Position numbers and translations under genes: made by a program
DNA from: a virus
Taxonomy: Duplodnaviria; Heunggongvirae; Uroviricota; Caudoviricetes
Strand: one strand, 5' to 3'
Length of the DNA: 8,374 bases
IMG/VR virus record: IMGVR_UViG_2548876950_000002
Part shown: positions 1 to 8,374 of the stretch, piece after piece
How the letters are laid out: every line of letters starts with the position of its first letter
How positions within the stretch are numbered: position 1 is the first letter of the stretch
The notes under the pieces: model-generated
The model's input: the letters and a program-made list of their open reading frames with translations, nothing else
Databases searched by the model: none
Told to the model about the DNA's origin: nothing

Positions 1-204
1 GTTACGCGAGCAGAGCAGGTCATCTACGACCAGAAATTCTCTGGCGCAGCCGCTGACCTTCTCAACGCTAACATCATCGCCCGTGATTTGGGCCTCAAAG
101 AGCAGTCGCAAGTTGAAGACGTGACACCTGATAAGGGAGATCGCGATAAGCGACGCTCTCGTATCAAGGAGCTATTCAACCGTGGAACTGGACGCGATTC
201 TTGA
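1..204 (+). CDS. Small terminase subunit (P22 gp3-like), C-terminal part only; 5' end lies upstream of the window
   Basis: Frame 1 is open from base 1 to TGA at 202-204 and translates to ...[67 protein letters not shown]. It lies directly upstream of and overlaps the large terminase gene, the conserved position for the small terminase. From memory it closely resembles the C-terminus of P22 gp3. Confidence 0.6.
166..171 (+). promoter_or_regulatory. Shine-Dalgarno AAGGAG for the large terminase GTG start
   Basis: AAGGAG at 166-171 sits 10 nt upstream of GTG at 182, inside the small terminase coding sequence. Confidence 0.6.
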
Positions 205-1678
205 TAACCTGAGCGACGAAGAGCAAATCGAGTTGCTCGAGCTACTCGAAGAAGAAGAGAACTACCGGAACACACACCTGCTATATGAATTTACGCCATA
301 CAGCAAACAGCGTGAGTTCATCGACGCCGGGCATGACTATCCAGAGCGATGTTTTATGGCTGGCAACCAGCTTGGTAAGTCATTTACTGGTGCTGCTGAA
401 GTCGCGTTTCACCTTACCGGGCGTTATCCGGGCACAAAAGGCTATCCTGCTGATGGTAAATATGGCGGTGAGTGGAAAGGTAAGCGTTTCTATGAGCCTG
501 TTGTCTTCTGGATTGGTGGCGAGACAAACGAGACTGTAACCAAAACGACTCAACGCATCCTGTGCGGTCGTATCGAAGAGAATGATGAGCCTGGCTACGG
601 TTCCATACCGAAAGAAGACATCATTAGCTGGAAGAAGTCTCCTTTCTTTCCGAACCTTGTTGATCATCTTCTGGTTAAGCATCACACGGCTGATGGCGTT
701 GAAGATGGCATTTCAATCTGCTACTTCAAGCCATACTCGCAAGGCCGTGCTCGCTGGCAGGGTGACACAATCCACGGCGTGTGGTTTGACGAAGAGCCAC
801 CATACAGCATTTATGGCGAAGGTCTTACCCGTACCAACAAATACGGGCAATTCTCAATTCTGACGTTTACCCCGCTGATGGGGATGTCTGACGTTGTTAC
901 CAAGTTCCTGAAGAATCCCAGCAAGTCGCAGAAAGTGGTCAACATGACCATCTATGACGCAGAGCACTACACCGACGAGCAGAAAGAGCAAATCATCGCA
1001 TCCTATCCTGAGCATGAGAGAGAGGCGCGTGCTCGCGGTATTCCAACGATGGGTAGCGGTCGAATCTTCCAGATACCGGAAGAGACGATTAAGTGTCAGC
1101 CGTTCGAGTGTCCTGATCACTTCTACGTCATCAATGCAATGGACTTCGGATGGGATCACCCACAGGCACATATCCAGCTTTGGTGGGATAAAGACGAGGA
1201 CGTGATTTATCTTTCTCGCGTCTGGAAGGCCAAACAGAAGAAGGCGACAGAGGCATGGAGTGCTGTTAAAGCATGGAGCAAAAACACCCCTACGGCTTGG
1301 CCTCATGACGGGCATCAGCACGAAAAGGGAGGCGGCGCTCAGCTCAAGGAACAATACGCCGACGCTGGGTTCGACATGTTGCCAGATCATGCAACATGGC
1401 CTGATGGAGGTAATGCGGTCGAACCCGGGATAGCAGAGATACGCGACATGATGCTCGACGGTCGTTTCAAGGTATTTAACACCTGCGAGCCATTCTTTGA
1501 AGAGTTTCGCCTGTATCACCGCGATGAGAACGGGAGGATCGTCAAGCTAAATGACGACATCCTTTCTGCTGTTCGCTATGGCTACATGATGAGGCGTTTT
1601 GCAATACAGATGCGAGACATCAAAGATCCTAAAGAGATTGATTACTCAAGCTACAACATACCTTGCGGAGTTGGATGA
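182..1678 (+). CDS. Terminase large subunit (P22 gp2-like; ATPase plus nuclease)
   Basis: 498-codon ORF with a GTG start preceded by a strong SD. It contains a deviant Walker A-like motif (AGNQLGKS) near the N-terminus, as expected for a terminase ATPase. Size matches the roughly 499-aa P22 gp2, and the position between small terminase and portal is canonical. Confidence 0.88.
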
Positions 1679-3879
1679 TGGCTGATGATAGAAAGATGAC
1701 TGACTGGCATCGCAAGGTGCTGTGCAACTTTGATAATGCCTGGTCAGCAACGCAGGATATGCGTGAGCAGATTATTGAGGCTCAACGTTTCGTCCGGGTA
1801 TCCGGCGCACAGTGGGAAGGCAGCACAAACGCTGGTTACTCATTTGATGAAGGAAGGTTTGAGCATTACCCGCGCTTTGAGCTGAATAAGATTGCCCGTG
1901 AATGTGATCGCATCATTGGCGAGTATCGACAGAATCGCATCAGCGTTAAATTCAGGCCGAAGGACGATAAGGCATCGGAAGCGTTAGCCGAAAAGATGAA
2001 CGGCAAATTCCGCGCTGACTATCAGGAAACATCCGGTGGCGAAGCGTGTGATAACGCATTTGATGATGCTGTAACGGGCGGATTCGGTTGTTTCCGCATG
2101 TGTGCCGATTACGAAGATGAAATGGATCCGAGTAACGAGCAGCGCCGTATAAGCCTTCTTCCTGTTTACGACCCAGCGACATGCGTCTTCTTCGATCAGG
2201 ACAGCAAGCAATATGACCGCTCTGATGCTATGTGGGCTATGGAAATGTTCTCCATGACGCCTAAAGCGTTCGAGGCTGAATACCCTGACTCCATCGCGGC
2301 AAGTCTTTCTCGTGATGACGCTGGTACTCAGTATGGCTGGTCAACGCCTGATGCCATCTATGTTGGACGCTACTACGAAGTTCGCATAGAGAAGGTGAAG
2401 CTCACGGCGTGGCGCAATCCTGTCAGCGGAGAAACGGCAATCTATGATGAAGAGCAAATCAAAGATATTGTCGACGAGCTGACCGATGGTGCATTCGAAC
2501 TGATTGGCGAGCGAACGGTGAAGAAGCGCCGCGTTTATTGCGGTCTTCTGTCTGGCGCTGAATGGCTGGAAGAACCGAAGCGTATTCCGGGCGAACATAT
2601 TCCTCTCATCCCGGTATATGGGCGTCGCTCATTTGTTGATAATCAGGAGCGAATAGAAGGCCACGCAGCAAAAGCGATGGATGCACAGCGTCTTGAGAAC
2701 CTGATGGTTTCCATGATTGCAGATAACGCTACTCAGGCTGGCGGTGATGGCATTCCTGTAGTTGATGTTGACATGATTCCTGGTCCTCTCGCCAATCATT
2801 GGGCGGAGCGCAACAAAAAGCGCCCGGCGTTCCTGCCGATGGTAAGTCTGAAAAACAAAAACGGAGATATTACTGCGCAGGCTCAGGTCAGCAGTTATAC
2901 ACCTCCGACACAAATGCCTCCTGCTCTTGCCTGGTTATTGCAGTACACCGGAACGGCTATTCAGCAAATTACCGGGGCTTCGCAGCTTGAGAACATGCCG
3001 AGCAACGTCGCCACCGATACCGTTGATAGCATCTTTAACCGGATGGACACGCAGTCCTATATCTACATGGACAACATGGCTAAATCCATGCGTCGCGCTG
3101 GCGTTGTGTGGCTTTCTATGGCGCGTGAGGTCTATGGCAGTGATACGCCGATGCGTATCGTGAATGAGGACGACAGCGATGACGTGGCGCTGATGACTGG
3201 TGAAGTGGTTGACCGTCAGACAGGGCAGGTTATCGCGCTTAACGACCTTTCGCAGGGTAACTATGAAGTGACTGTCGATGTCGGTCAGTCGTTCGCTACT
3301 CGCCGTGATGCAACGGTTAAGTCGTTACTTTCCATGCTGGCACTTATCCCACCAGGAACGCCGAAGCACGACCTTGTATCGTCGATGATTCTCGACAATA
3401 TGGACGGCGAAGGGATGGACGACCTGAAAGAATACAACCGCAATCAGTTGCTTCTGTCTGGCGTTATCAAGCCGAGAACGCCTGAAGAACAGCAAATGGT
3501 TGAGCAGGCGAAACAACAACAGGCCAGTCAGCCAGATCCGGCTATGGTTGCTGCGCAAGGTCAGCTTCTTGCTGGTCAGGCTGAATTGCAGAAAGCGCAG
3601 AACGAACAGGCAGCCATTCAGGTTAAAGCATTCCAGGCACAGACTGATGCTCAGGTTGCAGCGGCAAATGTTGTGAAAATACTCGCATCTGCCGATAGTC
3701 AGCAGAAATCTGATATCCGCGAGGCTCTGAAACTGCTCGGACAGTTCCAGCAACAGCAAGGAGACAATGCCCGTGCTGATGCAGAGCTTGTCCTGAAAAG
3801 TCAGGCACAGGGCCATGCGCAGCGCATGGACATCAGCAGCATCCTGCAAAAATCAACTCAGCAACAACCACAGCAGTAA
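1678..3879 (+). CDS. Portal protein (P22 gp1-like) with a Q/A-rich C-terminal helical barrel region
   Basis: Long ORF ending at TAA 3877-3879. I chose ATG 1678 (MADDRK...) because GGAG at 1667-1670 gives 7-nt spacing and P22 portal starts MAD...; ATG 1675 (forming an ATGA overlap with the terminase stop) and TTG 1663 from the ORF track are alternatives. The C-terminal segment (PEEQQ...AQGQLLAGQAELQKAQN...RMDISSILQ...) resembles the P22 portal barrel as I recall it. Confidence 0.88.
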   Translation: MADDRKMTDWHRKVLCNFDNAWSATQDMREQIIEAQRFVRVSGAQWEGSTNAGYSFDEGRFEHYPRFELNKIARECDRIIGEYRQNRISVKFRPKDDKASEALAEKMNGKFRADYQETSGGEACDNAFDDAVTGGFGCFRMCADYEDEMDPSNEQRRISLLPVYDPATCVFFDQDSKQYDRSDAMWAMEMFSMTPKAFEAEYPDSIAASLSRDDAGTQYGWSTPDAIYVGRYYEVRIEKVKLTAWRNPVSGETAIYDEEQIKDIVDELTDGAFELIGERTVKKRRVYCGLLSGAEWLEEPKRIPGEHIPLIPVYGRRSFVDNQERIEGHAAKAMDAQRLENLMVSMIADNATQAGGDGIPVVDVDMIPGPLANHWAERNKKRPAFLPMVSLKNKNGDITAQAQVSSYTPPTQMPPALAWLLQYTGTAIQQITGASQLENMPSNVATDTVDSIFNRMDTQSYIYMDNMAKSMRRAGVVWLSMAREVYGSDTPMRIVNEDDSDDVALMTGEVVDRQTGQVIALNDLSQGNYEVTVDVGQSFATRRDATVKSLLSMLALIPPGTPKHDLVSSMILDNMDGEGMDDLKEYNRNQLLLSGVIKPRTPEEQQMVEQAKQQQASQPDPAMVAAQGQLLAGQAELQKAQNEQAAIQVKAFQAQTDAQVAAANVVKILASADSQQKSDIREALKLLGQFQQQQGDNARADAELVLKSQAQGHAQRMDISSILQKSTQQQPQQ

Positions 3880-3969
3880 TTAACCCATAACGTGCAATGG
3901 CTGTCTTTATGAGGCCTGGCACCCTATTGCCTTCCGATGGGCTGAACATCGAGTAAACAGGGGTAACAA

Positions 3970-4863
3970 ATGGACCAGATGGCAGAAAACACACCAGAAG
4001 TTGAAATCGAAACCGATACATCAGAGCAGATTCCTGATGATGTCGAACTGGCTGAAGAAGTCGAAACAGAAGATGGCAGTGAGTCCTCCGGCAATGATGC
4101 AGAGGAAGCTACTGAAACTGATGACGACGAATCAGAACAGGAATTCTACTTTGGTGACGAAAAGCTGGATTCGCCAACCAGCGAAGATGGCGCAGAGCAT
4201 GGACTGGTAAAACACCTGCGCAAGACGATTAAAGAGAAAGACCGCGAGCTGAAAGAGCTGATGCGTCAGTCTCAGAAACCCGTCGAGCAGCAGCCGGTAA
4301 TCACTCAACCACCTCGAATGCCAAAACTGGATGATGAGGACATCGGTTTCGATGAAGAAATCTACCAGCAACGCATGGCTAAGTGGGCAGAGGATAACGG
4401 CAAGTACCAGCAACAGGAGATGGCTCGCAAGCAGAAGGAGCAGGAGCTTCAGGCTGCCTATCAAGAGCGATTATCCAAATATCAGCAACGTGTTAAGGCT
4501 CTCAAAGTTCCTGGCTATCAGGAAGCTGAGCAGGCCGTACTCGAGGAAATCCCAATCGAGACACAAAACGCGATCCTGTTTGAGTCAGAGAAGCCGGAGA
4601 TCGTTGTTCTGGCACTCGGTCGCAACGCTGAACTGCGCAAGCAACTGGCAGAAGCTACCAACCCCGTAGCAATTGGTCGTCTGCTGGAACGTATCGAATC
4701 GAAGGCCAGAATCATGCCAAAAGCAAAAACCACGGCAGCCACAACCCCGACAGTTAAGGGGAGCAACGGCGCAGTAATCAATAACCTCGACAAACTGAAA
4801 GCCAAGGCGCTGGAAACTGGTGACTGGACGCCGTATTTCGCCGCCAAAAAGGCAAAAAAATAA
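3970..4863 (+). CDS. Scaffolding protein (P22 gp8-like position); acidic N-terminus, basic C-terminal coat-binding-like tail
   Basis: 297-codon ORF between portal and coat with an SD-like AGGGG about 7 nt upstream. The C-terminus (...LDKLKAKALETGDWTPYFAAKKAKK) resembles the basic helix-turn-helix coat-binding end of P22 scaffold. Assignment rests mainly on synteny and composition. ATG 3979 is an alternative start. Confidence 0.72.
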   Translation: MDQMAENTPEVEIETDTSEQIPDDVELAEEVETEDGSESSGNDAEEATETDDDESEQEFYFGDEKLDSPTSEDGAEHGLVKHLRKTIKEKDRELKELMRQSQKPVEQQPVITQPPRMPKLDDEDIGFDEEIYQQRMAKWAEDNGKYQQQEMARKQKEQELQAAYQERLSKYQQRVKALKVPGYQEAEQAVLEEIPIETQNAILFESEKPEIVVLALGRNAELRKQLAEATNPVAIGRLLERIESKARIMPKAKTTAATTPTVKGSNGAVINNLDKLKAKALETGDWTPYFAAKKAKK

Positions 4864-4869
4864 CCTATC

Positions 4870-4873
4870 GGAG
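4870..4873 (+). promoter_or_regulatory. Shine-Dalgarno GGAG for the coat gene
   Basis: GGAG lies 8 nt upstream of ATG 4882. Confidence 0.6.
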
Positions 4874-4881
4874 CATTAAGC

Positions 4882-6135
4882 ATGGCTAACCAATTAGCAA
4901 AAGGCCTTGAAATCATGTTCGAAAACTACGTTGAAGGCTTTGAGGCCGCCTGCGTAGTTTCCCGTAACGCTAAAAAATTCCGTCCCGGTGATACAGCAAT
5001 GCAGCGAGCAGGTGATGTTCTGTATCGTCCGCAGCATTACCACATGAACATTGAGGAAGGCCTAGACCTCAGCGGCAAAACGCCAACAGCACTGGTTCAG
5101 CGCCTTGTTCCTTCTGTGTTCAAGGAGCCGAAAAACATTCTGTACACTCTGGATGCGCGTGAAATGCGTGACCCGGAACATAAAACTGAAGCTGGTCGCG
5201 CCGCAGGTATGCGCCTTGCTGCACAGATTGACTCTGACCTGATTTCCATGGTTACGCAGCGTGCTACTAACGTGATCACGATGGCTGACTCAACCACAGG
5301 TTCACAGGGCCGTGATTTGTGGAACTGTGCGGCAGGTATTGATGCCACCATGACGGCGATTGGTGTACCTCAGGGTATCAACCGTCGCTCTTTCTGGAAC
5401 CCCTTCAACTACAAAGACCTTGCTGGCGAGCTTAGTCACCGTGCCTATGCTCAGGGCGCAACCCTGACAGCATACGAAAAAGCGCAAATCCCTCCGGTTG
5501 CGTCCTTCGATAGCTACAAGACCGATATTTCTGGTCGTGTTCCGAAGGGTACAGCAACTTCCATTACGCTGGCAGCAGCACCTGCGCACAAGGTTGAAGC
5601 GAAAGATGCTAACGATATGCCAGTGGATAACCGACAGGGGACCATTACGGTATCTGCTGAAGGTTTGCAGGTTGGCGATGCGTTTACCATCGCAGGGGTG
5701 AATTCTGTACACCAGATCACCAAAGATACCACCGGGCAGCCGCAGGTATTCCGCGTTCTGGCAGTAAGCGGAACGACAGTAACTATCTCCCCGAAAATTC
5801 TGCCGCCTGACAACGCGGATGTCGCCAGCCGACCATATGCAAACGTTGATGCTAACGCGGCAAATGGTGCAGCAATTACCATTCTCAACAAAAATGCCGC
5901 ACCGGCTAACCTATTCTGGGCTGATGGTTCTGTTGAGCTGATGTACGGCAAACTGGCGTTCCCGACTGGTCAGGGTCCACAGGTAATGACAGCAACCACC
6001 GAGCAGGGCGCTACGCTGATCATGTCTTACGCCTTCGACCACATCAAAGGCGTAACCACTGCTCGTTTCACCACTCTGTATGGTTGCTCTGTACTTGTTC
6101 CTGAATATACGGGCATCGTTATTGCCGGGCAGTAA
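4882..6135 (+). CDS. Major capsid (coat) protein, P22 gp5-like (HK97 fold with inserted domain expected)
   Basis: 417-codon ORF with a good SD, directly after the scaffold gene. Size is close to P22 coat (about 430 aa), and the motif FWADGSVELM resembles the P22 coat motif FWADDAIRIV as I recall it. The gene is followed by a terminator-like hairpin, typical of a highly expressed coat gene. Confidence 0.85.
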   Translation: MANQLAKGLEIMFENYVEGFEAACVVSRNAKKFRPGDTAMQRAGDVLYRPQHYHMNIEEGLDLSGKTPTALVQRLVPSVFKEPKNILYTLDAREMRDPEHKTEAGRAAGMRLAAQIDSDLISMVTQRATNVITMADSTTGSQGRDLWNCAAGIDATMTAIGVPQGINRRSFWNPFNYKDLAGELSHRAYAQGATLTAYEKAQIPPVASFDSYKTDISGRVPKGTATSITLAAAPAHKVEAKDANDMPVDNRQGTITVSAEGLQVGDAFTIAGVNSVHQITKDTTGQPQVFRVLAVSGTTVTISPKILPPDNADVASRPYANVDANAANGAAITILNKNAAPANLFWADGSVELMYGKLAFPTGQGPQVMTATTEQGATLIMSYAFDHIKGVTTARFTTLYGCSVLVPEYTGIVIAGQ

Positions 6136-6142
6136 TTTTGGT

Positions 6143-6165
6143 GGGGCTTCGGCCCCATTTTTATT
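6143..6165 (+). terminator. Intrinsic-terminator-like hairpin: GGGGC / TTCG loop / GCCCC followed by ATTTTTATT
   Basis: Perfect 5-bp GC stem at 6143-6147 and 6152-6156 with a TTCG tetraloop at 6148-6151. The stem can be extended by a T-A and G-T pair, and a T-rich tract follows at 6157-6165. It lies 8 nt after the coat stop codon. Confidence 0.6.
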
Positions 6166-6176
6166 GGGAGAAGACA

Positions 6177-6365
6177 ATGGCACGAACAATGCTCTATAAG
6201 CCTGGCAACATGATCACCTGTGGTCAGTTTGCTGTCGATTACATCATTGTTGATGACGAAGAAGTTAAATCTCACCTGAAAAAAGGCTGGGTAAAAACTC
6301 CTGAAGAAACCGCAACGAAGCATAAAGTGGCTAAGGCGGAAGAAGATGGCGAAAACGAAGGGTGA
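6177..6365 (+). CDS. Small hypothetical protein (62 aa), in the position of the small ORF between coat and gp4 in P22-like phages
   Basis: ATG 6177 is preceded by GGGAG at 6166-6170 with 6-nt spacing. The product has an acidic C-terminus (...KAEEDGENEG). It overlaps the gp4-like start by 20 nt. Function unknown. Confidence 0.5.
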   Translation: MARTMLYKPGNMITCGQFAVDYIIVDDEEVKSHLKKGWVKTPEETATKHKVAKAEEDGENEG

Positions 6366-6807
6366 TCTCGTTCTTAAGGCTTTACGAAAAGCCGGGCTGT
6401 ATTCCAATGCCACGTTGACAGATGCCGACCCTCAGGCAATTGAAGATGCCATTAATGACCTCGAAGACATGATGGCAGCATGGCAGGCGAAAGGTATCGA
6501 GCTTGGGTATCAGTTTGCTGATACAGAAAACGGCATCATGCCGTTGCCTGACGATGATTCAGGTATCCCTGCATGGGCAAATGATGGCGTCGCTTTGAAA
6601 CTCGCTGTGCAAGTGTGCATGGATAACGTCATTCAGCCGTCAGACGCTCTCCTTACCGCTGCTGACAGTGCATATCAAACAATCTGTATCGCTTTAACCA
6701 AAATACCACCACTTGAGCGGCGAAATGACATGCCTCGCGGTAGTGGTAACAAAAGCGCGTTTACGTGGAATCGGTTTTACATCGAGAAAGATGATCCGAG
6801 TACGTGA
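6346..6807 (+). CDS. Head completion / tail adaptor protein (P22 gp4-like)
   Basis: 153-codon ORF. The N-terminus (MAKTKGDLVLKALRKAGLYSNATLTDADPQAIEDAINDLEDMMAAWQ) matches the conserved gp4 N-terminal pattern as I recall it (TKGDL...ALRK...ATLTD...PQ...DLE.MMA.W). Synteny is canonical. Confidence 0.82.
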   Translation: MAKTKGDLVLKALRKAGLYSNATLTDADPQAIEDAINDLEDMMAAWQAKGIELGYQFADTENGIMPLPDDDSGIPAWANDGVALKLAVQVCMDNVIQPSDALLTAADSAYQTICIALTKIPPLERRNDMPRGSGNKSAFTWNRFYIEKDDPST

Positions 6808-6816
6808 GGTGAATAA

Positions 6817-8235
6817 ATGCCGATTCAGCAACTTCCGCTTATGAAAGGTGTCGGCAAAGACTTTCGAAACGCCGACTATATCGACTATCTGCCAGTGAAT
6901 ATGTTGGCTACACCCAAAGAAATCCTGAACAGCAGCGGATATCTTCGCTCATTCCCGGGCATTGCCAAACGTTCTGATGTGAACGGAGTATCGCGAGGCG
7001 TCGAGTACAACATGGCGCAGAATGCTGTTTATCGCGTGTGTGGTGGCAAGCTGTACAAAGGAGAAAGTGAAGTCGGTGACGTCGCCGGAAGTGGTCGTGT
7101 ATCAATGGCGCATGGTCGGACATCACAGGCGGTAGGTGTTAATGGTCAACTGGTCGAGTATCGCTATGATGGCACTGTTAAAACCGTCTCAAACTGGCCT
7201 ACAGACAGCGGTTTTACGCAGTATGAGTTAGGTTCAGTTCGCGACATTACGCGCTTACGTGGGCGTTATGCGTGGTCAAAAGACGGTACTGATTCATGGT
7301 TTATCACTGACCTTGAAGACGAATCGCACCCTGACCGCTACAGCGCACAATATCGTGCAGAATCGCAGCCTGACGGCATCATCGGCATAGGTACATGGCG
7401 AGACTTTATCGTCTGCTTTGGTTCATCGACAATTGAATATTTCTCCCTGACTGGTGCAACCACCGTTGGTGCCGCTTTGTATGTCGCACAGCCATCGCTG
7501 ATGGTGCAGAAAGGTATTGCCGGGACTTACTGCAAAACGCCATTCGCTGATTCTTATGCGTTCATCAGCAATCCGGCAACAGGTGCGCCGTCTGTATACA
7601 TCATCGGCTCCGGTCAGGTATCACCAATCGCCAGCGCGAGCATTGAGAAAATCCTCCGCTCCTACACTGCTGATGAACTGGCTGATGGTGTGATGGAATC
7701 GCTGCGGTTTGATGCTCATGAGTTGCTGATTATCCACCTTCCTCGCCATGCTCTCGTGTACGACGCATCTTCAAGCGCAAATGGTCCGCAATGGTGTGTG
7801 CTGAAAACAGGCCTGTATGACGATGTGTACCGCGCTATCGACTTCATTTACGAAGGCAATCAGATAACGTGCGGCGATAAGCTGGAATCCGTGACCGGGA
7901 AACTGCAGTTCGATATCAGCAGCCAGTATGGTCTTCAACAGGAACACCTGCTGTTTACTCCACTCTTCAAAGCAGATAACGCCAGATGCTTTGATCTGGA
8001 GGTGGAATCATCGACGGGTGTTGCGCAGTACGCCGACCGCCTTTTTCTCTCTGCAACCACTGACGGCATCAATTACGGTCGTGAGCAGATGATTGAGCAG
8101 AATGAACCGTTCGTTTACGACAAACGCGTTTTGTGGAAGAAAGTAGGGCGCATCAGGAAAAACATTGGTTTCAAATTGCGCGTTATCACGAAGTCACCTG
8201 TCACTCTGTCAGGCTGCCAGATAAGGATTGAGTAA
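6817..8235 (+). CDS. Tail hub protein (P22 gp10-like)
   Basis: 472-codon ORF, the same length as P22 gp10, lying between the gp4-like and needle genes. SD GAGGTG at 6806-6811. Its stop overlaps the needle start as TAATG. Confidence 0.82.
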
Positions 8236-8324
8236 TGGCTGATTCGAATCTCAATACACCTGTTATTGTTCAGGCTACACGGCTCGACACATCAGTCCTT
8301 CCACGCAATATCTTCTCGCAGTGA
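8235..8324 (+). pseudogene. Tail needle (P22 gp26-like) N-terminal 29 codons, truncated by an in-frame TGA at 8322-8324 contributed by an inserted element
   Basis: ATG 8235 overlaps the gp10-like stop and has an AAGGA SD 7 nt upstream. The translation [29 protein letters not shown] matches the P22 gp26 N-tip ([29 protein letters not shown]...) as I recall it. Resemblance ends abruptly at the TGA. Confidence 0.6.
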
Positions 8325-8374
8325 ACCGCCCCGGAAATCCTGGAGACTAAACTCCCTGAGAAAGAGGTAAACAG
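8322..8374 (+). mobile_element. Left end (terminal inverted repeat plus leader) of an IS3-family insertion sequence, IS629/IS1203/IS3411-like; partial, continues beyond the window
   Basis: The sequence TGAACCGCCCCGGAAATCCTGGAGACTAAACTCCCTGAGAAAGAGGTAAACAG begins with the 5'-TG typical of IS3-family ends. From memory it matches, with one or two mismatches, the left end of IS629-group elements. AAGAGG at 8362-8367 is placed to drive an orfA start just beyond the window. Needle-gene homology stops exactly at this point. Confidence 0.6.

Follow-up and report, generated by a model that had tools for sequence, protein, structure and literature searches.

An IS1203 insertion very probably disables the tail-needle gene of a P22/Sf6-like Escherichia coli prophage

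Gene content of the window

The window (the whole stretch of DNA that was analysed, 8374 nt) was found to be the entire contig AIBK01000009.1 of the draft assembly GCA_000446745.2, the two sequences being equal. A partial small-terminase product of 67 aa is encoded at positions 1-204, and the gene order TerL, portal, scaffold, coat, gp4, gp10 and needle matches that of annotated relatives, in which the needle gene lies directly after gp10. A 62-aa ORF (6177-6365), located between the coat and gp4 genes and overlapping the gp4 start, is kept in all of the related loci listed and was found to be without a Pfam match. The two features at the right-hand end of the phage genes are as follows:

6817..8235, plus strand: gene for a gp10-like tail hub/packaged-DNA stabilization protein of 472 aa (ORF list), the TAA of which (8233-8235) overlaps the needle ATG
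8235..8324, plus strand: truncated tail-needle ORF of 29 codons followed by a TGA formed by the first three bases of the insertion sequence (IS) (read from the sequence)

The identity of the upstream gene is indicated by PF11134 (Phage_stabilise), the precomputed Pfam match for the exact gp10-like product, and by the annotation "packaged DNA stabilization protein gp10" in a 100%-identical record (NZ_CP148401.1). An earlier note on this DNA, made from its letters alone, had the needle ORF starting at 8235 through a TAATG overlap with the gp10-like stop and closing after 29 codons. Both points can be read directly, with ATG at 8235-8237 on TAA at 8233-8235 and the terminating TGA at 8322-8324, and all of the positions given in that note are correct. 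The note had also taken the 29 codons for the conserved needle N-terminus, and this too was upheld, as residues 1-29 constitute the conserved virion-binding (plug) N-terminus and are identical to those of an intact 282-aa allele which aligns to P22 gp26 from residue 1. Neither a coiled-coil shaft nor a C-terminal tip or knob is present in the needle frame, which ends after the 29 codons; the ORF at 8235..8324 is a disrupted gene and not a functional member of the P22-like tail needle family.

An intact, base-identical prophage

The intact allele is found in NZ_CP148401.1, the genome of E. coli strain Z1323CEC0019, which originates from chicken in South Korea. When the window was compared by BLAST with the locus fetched from this record, positions 1-8322 were found to be identical at 8322 of 8322 bases, with 0 mismatches and no gaps. 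In the annotation of this record, the P22-like late region is complete and is arranged as follows:

First part: small terminase, TerL, portal, scaffold, coat, gp4 and gp10
Following gp10: an intact "tail needle knob protein" of 282 aa
After the needle: DUF2824 (gp14-like), gp7-like, two DNA-transfer proteins and tailspike

The intact needle gene (NZ_CP148401.1 2499838-2500686) begins with a stretch which window positions 8235-8322 match at 100% identity. Across the point of divergence the intact allele reads ...TTCTCGCAG TCGTATCTG, with the codons around it being ATC TTC TCG CAG TCG TAT CTG CTT TAC GTT (IFSQSYLLYV) and the break from the window falling after CAG. Residues 1-144 of the intact protein align with the P22 gp26 structures 2POH, 3C9I and 4LIN (E 4e-44 to 5e-47; PDB), while residues 130-282 align with the Sf6 gp9 knob 3RWN (E 1e-89; PDB); because of these two matches the allele can be called, on protein homology, a true tail needle of the knobbed Sf6 type. 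As a minor correction to the earlier note, the needle is of this knobbed Sf6 type and not one with the P22-type tip.

Among the matches listed, the contigs with the exact gp10 and TerL products are longer and have an intact needle (282 or 233 aa), and the full-length 282-aa allele was located by exact-product look-up on only two contigs. In NZ_CP148401.1, consecutive old WP numbers are borne by TerL/portal/coat/gp10, by gp7/gp14 and by gp16 through tailspike, with the needle and gp20 alone bearing new (2024) WP numbers. This pattern fits an earlier genome that probably carried the same prophage without an intact needle. The query containing the IS end matched at least 40 places in strain Z1323CEC0019, which indicates an IS-rich background in which such insertions are to be expected.

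The left end of IS1203

The sequence from position 8322 to the end of the window, TGAACCGCCCCGGAAATCCTGGAGACTAAACTCCCTGAGAAAGAGGTAAACAG, is of different origin from the phage genes that precede it. The following features were identified in it:

8322..8374, plus strand: first 53 nt of IS1203 (IS629 isoform, IS3 family), with its transposase on the plus strand (53/53 identity)
8322..8346, plus strand: left terminal inverted repeat (IRL), starting with 5'-TG at 8322-8323 (IRL and IRR compared on the reference copy)
8362..8367, plus strand: AAGAGG ribosome-binding site for the transposase orfA (sequence and reference copies)

The 53 nt of 8322-8374 were found at 100% identity (E 1e-18) at 16,600 places in 2,938 of the 5,426 complete E. 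coli genomes. These places lie on both chromosomes and plasmids, with up to 50 in a single genome, as is the case for a dispersed, multi-copy element. The same 53 nt form the beginning of an element in E. coli O157:H7 PV15-279 (locus L002, 2501-2553), and the match to IS1203 is no chance resemblance. A left terminal repeat of the IS629/IS1203/IS3411 type had been recognized from 8322 onwards in the earlier note, and the 53/53 identity to the IS1203 left end bears this out; IS1203 and IS3411 are isoforms of IS629 (PMC3271280).

The reference IS1203 copy of PV15-279 (L002 2501-3810) is 1310 bp in length, splits espY2 and is flanked by a 3-bp duplication (AAG/AAG). It begins with TGAACCGCCCC and ends with ...GGGGCGGTTCA, the IS1203 right end sequence being ...CCCGGGGCGGTTCA, and 22 of 25 terminal positions are complementary between IRL and IRR, with the right end closing on ...GGTTCA. 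Its CDS is annotated as "IS3-like element IS1203 family transposase" with a programmed frameshift and an AL1L pseudoknot. It starts at L002 2555, 2 nt beyond the 53-nt match, and the same layout was seen in a second annotated IS1203 copy. This agrees with the earlier suggestion that AAGAGG at 8362-8367 is placed for an orfA start beyond the window, and the predicted orfA ATG (8376-8378) would follow AAGAGG by 8 nt and the last base of the window by 2 nt. The IS and the phage late operon run in the same direction.

The junction between needle gene and insertion sequence

A junction query of 375 nt was searched against the 5,426 complete E. coli genomes and 50,697 phage records, with 30 listed matches from each search. 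Needle homology ends at 8322 in most of these 60 matches and at or before 8315 in a few phage records, with phages Louie, N7, HK620 and Sf6 being among those listed. At least 80% of the query was covered by 841 E. coli and 28 phage records. No record among the 5,426 E. coli genomes or the 50,697 phage records spans the junction at 8321/8322, since coverage of the 375-nt query reached no more than 86% in either search. An exact 29-mer across the left junction was likewise absent from the viral, species-representative genome and metagenome contig collections.

Position 8322 is a T which could belong to either partner, as the first base of the needle codon TCG or of the TGA that begins the IS. 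This leaves an uncertainty of 1 nt in the junction, which was placed at 8321/8322 because IS3 ends begin with 5'-TG. Collinearity of intact homologues with the window beyond 8325 had been named in the earlier note as a finding that would speak against an insertion; the identical allele reads TCGTATCTG (SYLLYV) there, not TAPEILETK. It is almost certain that a genuine IS end is present at the codon 30 site of the needle gene.

Why the contig stops within the element

That the window closes after 53 nt of the IS follows from its being a whole short-read contig, the assembler having halted where a multi-copy repeat began. The stretch shared with the O157 copy becomes 55 nt when the AG before it is included, as that copy is also preceded by AG. 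The missing downstream sequence is therefore technical and carries no biological meaning, and a short contig which ends in some 53-55 nt of IS sequence should be viewed as an assembly break at a repeat and not as a biological boundary. The insertion is probably the sole allele in the GCA_000446745.2 assembly, as the contig would have stopped at 8322 had an intact allele coexisted with it.

With regard to the opposite end of the contig, the small-terminase gene contains the 22-bp sequence GAAGATTTATCTGAAGTCGTTA (L001 984-1005), which matches the published P22 pac site exactly (PMC5261728), and its final 4 nt (GTTA) are window positions 1-4. The start of the contig at pac may be a coincidence or may reflect a coverage step from packaged DNA. 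Three further contigs, one from Logan and two ENA metagenome contigs (L025, L026 and L027; alleles 98-99% identical), also start in the first codon of the window. Their shared start was rejected as a biological end, as it is most likely due to selection bias, the exact-product look-up returning only contigs which start in that codon.

Proposed insertion event

Taken together, it is very likely that IS1203 inserted into the needle gene of a P22/Sf6-like prophage and that the needle gene was disabled by it. The element (1310 bp) would have transposed between codon 29 (CAG, 8319-8321) and codon 30 (TCG), and the IS-terminal TGA would then close the needle frame to give a 29-residue peptide without coiled-coil shaft and without knob. 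The predicted target site is as follows:

8319..8321, plus strand: target site CAG, for which a 3-bp duplication is predicted after the IS right end (AAG in the reference copy; 3-4 bp for IS629, PMC3271280)

In a simple insertion, the IS right end (...GGGGCGGTTCA) would be followed by CAG (or GCAG), then by TCGTATCTGCTTTACG and the gp14-like gene. Such a simple insertion, with the needle gene resuming after a duplication of 3-4 bp, is the probable arrangement. We infer the rest of the IS copy, the CAG duplication and the needle remainder on another contig, as well as the phenotype. The insertion is strain-specific. It is also very recent, because the 8322 nt of phage sequence are base-for-base identical to those of the intact prophage. 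The additional proposal of the earlier note, that the IS may mark the edge of a rearranged or cargo-carrying region, found no support. The event is of a known kind, the erosion of prophages by IS629-type elements in E. coli being already well documented.

Fate of the remainder of the needle gene

The predicted right junction (IRR, 2-5 nt and TCGTATCTG) was absent from the viral, genome and metagenome collections, which also lack the left junction. Where the IS right end precedes CAG-TCGTATCTG, an in-frame, IS-derived TAA is met and the next start is a GTG at needle codon 45, which predicts a GTG-initiated remnant ORF of 238 aa comprising needle residues 45-282. Exact-product look-up placed precisely this predicted remnant on one NCBI contig of 2277 nt. 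This is a clue to a simple insertion, indirect and not specific, since a near-identical call occurs in a set of deletion remnants, namely the unrelated Logan contigs L028-L032, where a 238-aa, GTG-initiated call of 99% identity was found. In these remnants (L028 3407-4219 in the first contig), unrelated DNA has taken the place of all the head genes and of 38 nt at the start of the needle gene; it carries a 226-aa ORF and, on the opposite strand, Peptidase_S24 and DUF2513 genes. Partial gp20 products guessed for the far end of the 2277-nt contig (four allele types, 95-104 aa) gave 0 of 20 found.

The L028-L032 contigs, being E. coli prophage remnants, represent an independent route to needle truncation. 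Recurrent mosaic breakpoints were also observed among related prophages (L001 9444-9459, ~11256 and 11817-11937), one of which follows needle codon ~70-75, where the conserved N-terminal domain ends, with several lying inside the gp20-like gene. Many of the "partial" needle proteins in databases probably reflect contig breaks at such mosaic boundaries.

Alternative explanations

An IS-associated rearrangement, in which the left end lies at codon 29 with the right end joined elsewhere and the remainder of the needle gene deleted or relocated, is the alternative which survives best, and is considered unlikely. It could have come about by adjacent deletion, by inversion between IS copies or by loss of the distal prophage. 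Its appeal lies in the absence of the predicted right-junction pattern from all of the collections searched, although these also lack the left junction, and in the finding that matching duplications are present at only 21 of 47 IS629 sites in O157 genomes, i.e., fewer than half (PMC3271280), so that such outcomes are not rare. Strains bearing the IS also often hold dozens of recombinable copies, as is illustrated by the 40 or more places in the strain with the identical prophage. However, the perfect identity over 8322 nt speaks for a very recent event that left little time for later rearrangement, and the exact remnant of a needle allele so rare that its full-length form is on two contigs only was found on a small NCBI contig. 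The WP-number pattern further suggests that gp14, gp7, gp16 and tailspike were present in the early genome. A simple insertion is accordingly preferred to rearrangement.

An assembly artefact or minority allele, in which a chimeric read, a mis-join or a subpopulation would account for the junction and the main genome would have an intact needle, is very improbable. The junction does lie at the very tip of a draft contig, and none of the other public records searched contains it, but, as in genuine insertions, the switch from needle to IS occurs precisely where the IS terminal repeat begins (TG...), and a random chimera would rarely place it there. The continuation of the contig for 53-55 nt into the IS, with no stop at 8322, suggests that no competing intact path existed in the graph assembler, and a separate record holds the needle-remnant gene call. 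Lastly, the reading without any insertion, i.e., an ORF that is short by nature or a needle variant that continues past 8322, is refuted, as the listed intact homologues are collinear only to 8322 (at or before 8315 in a few phage records) and the window beyond this point is 100% IS1203.

Consequences for the prophage

Once the DNA of P22 has been packaged, the exit channel of the portal and tail is closed by the needle's N-terminal end, which acts as a plug. It has been shown that P22 heads lose their packaged DNA again when gp26 is missing, and that the gene 26 amber mutation 26-amH204, with a stop at codon 54, is null when unsuppressed (PMC3741392). As a stop at codon 54 is already null, needle function should be abolished by a stop at codon 30 together with 1.3 kb of foreign DNA. 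If the IS1203-bearing prophage were induced, its DNA should be packaged and then lost, and infectious particles should form only with a needle provided in trans or after precise excision of the IS. A defective prophage is a reasonable reading on this analysis. The IS insertion may also have a polar effect on the ejection-protein genes that lie downstream.

Excision of IS629-type elements occurs at high frequency in strains that have an IS-excision enhancer (IEE). It is conceivable, if highly improbable, that the insertion is a reversible switch through IEE excision, the prophage being mostly locked and occasionally infectious, or that the needle of a second P22-like prophage acts in trans. Were such a switch to operate, the needle interrupted at the CAG duplication would be restored in a subpopulation. 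The contig would best be annotated as a needle pseudogene and an IS1203 end, i.e., as a freshly inactivated P22/Sf6-like prophage and not as a functional phage. The intact, base-identical prophage and the disrupted one form a possible natural isogenic control pair for needle function.

Comparison with known systems

The left end in the window shares with IS1203/IS629/IS3411 of E. coli and Shigella the same 53/53 nt, the 5'-TG terminus and the ribosome-binding site of orfA. Nothing about it is distinctive except for its insertion site at needle codon 30, which is unique among the records searched. As with the majority of IS629 copies in O157 genomes, where 62% of the copies are within prophages (PMC3271280), it sits in a prophage, and it interrupts a gene.

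The needle gene occupies the same place after gp10 as that of Sf6 gp9 and the HS1 needle, the N-termini of which are homologous to that of P22 gp26, with an overlapping start and the conserved virion-binding N-terminus (29 residues). In contrast to these, only 29 of 282 codons remain in frame, with the shaft and knob gone from the product. The intact sister allele combines a P22 gp26-like N-terminal half with an Sf6/HS1-type knob, from which it has 1-3 differences over ~150 aligned residues. The disrupted gene has in common with the P22 gene 26 amber mutants an early stop in the needle and the same expected null outcome, in which DNA is packaged and not retained (PMC3741392). It differs from them in that the lesion is a 1.3-kb insertion and not a point mutation, with reversion being possible in principle only by precise excision of the IS.
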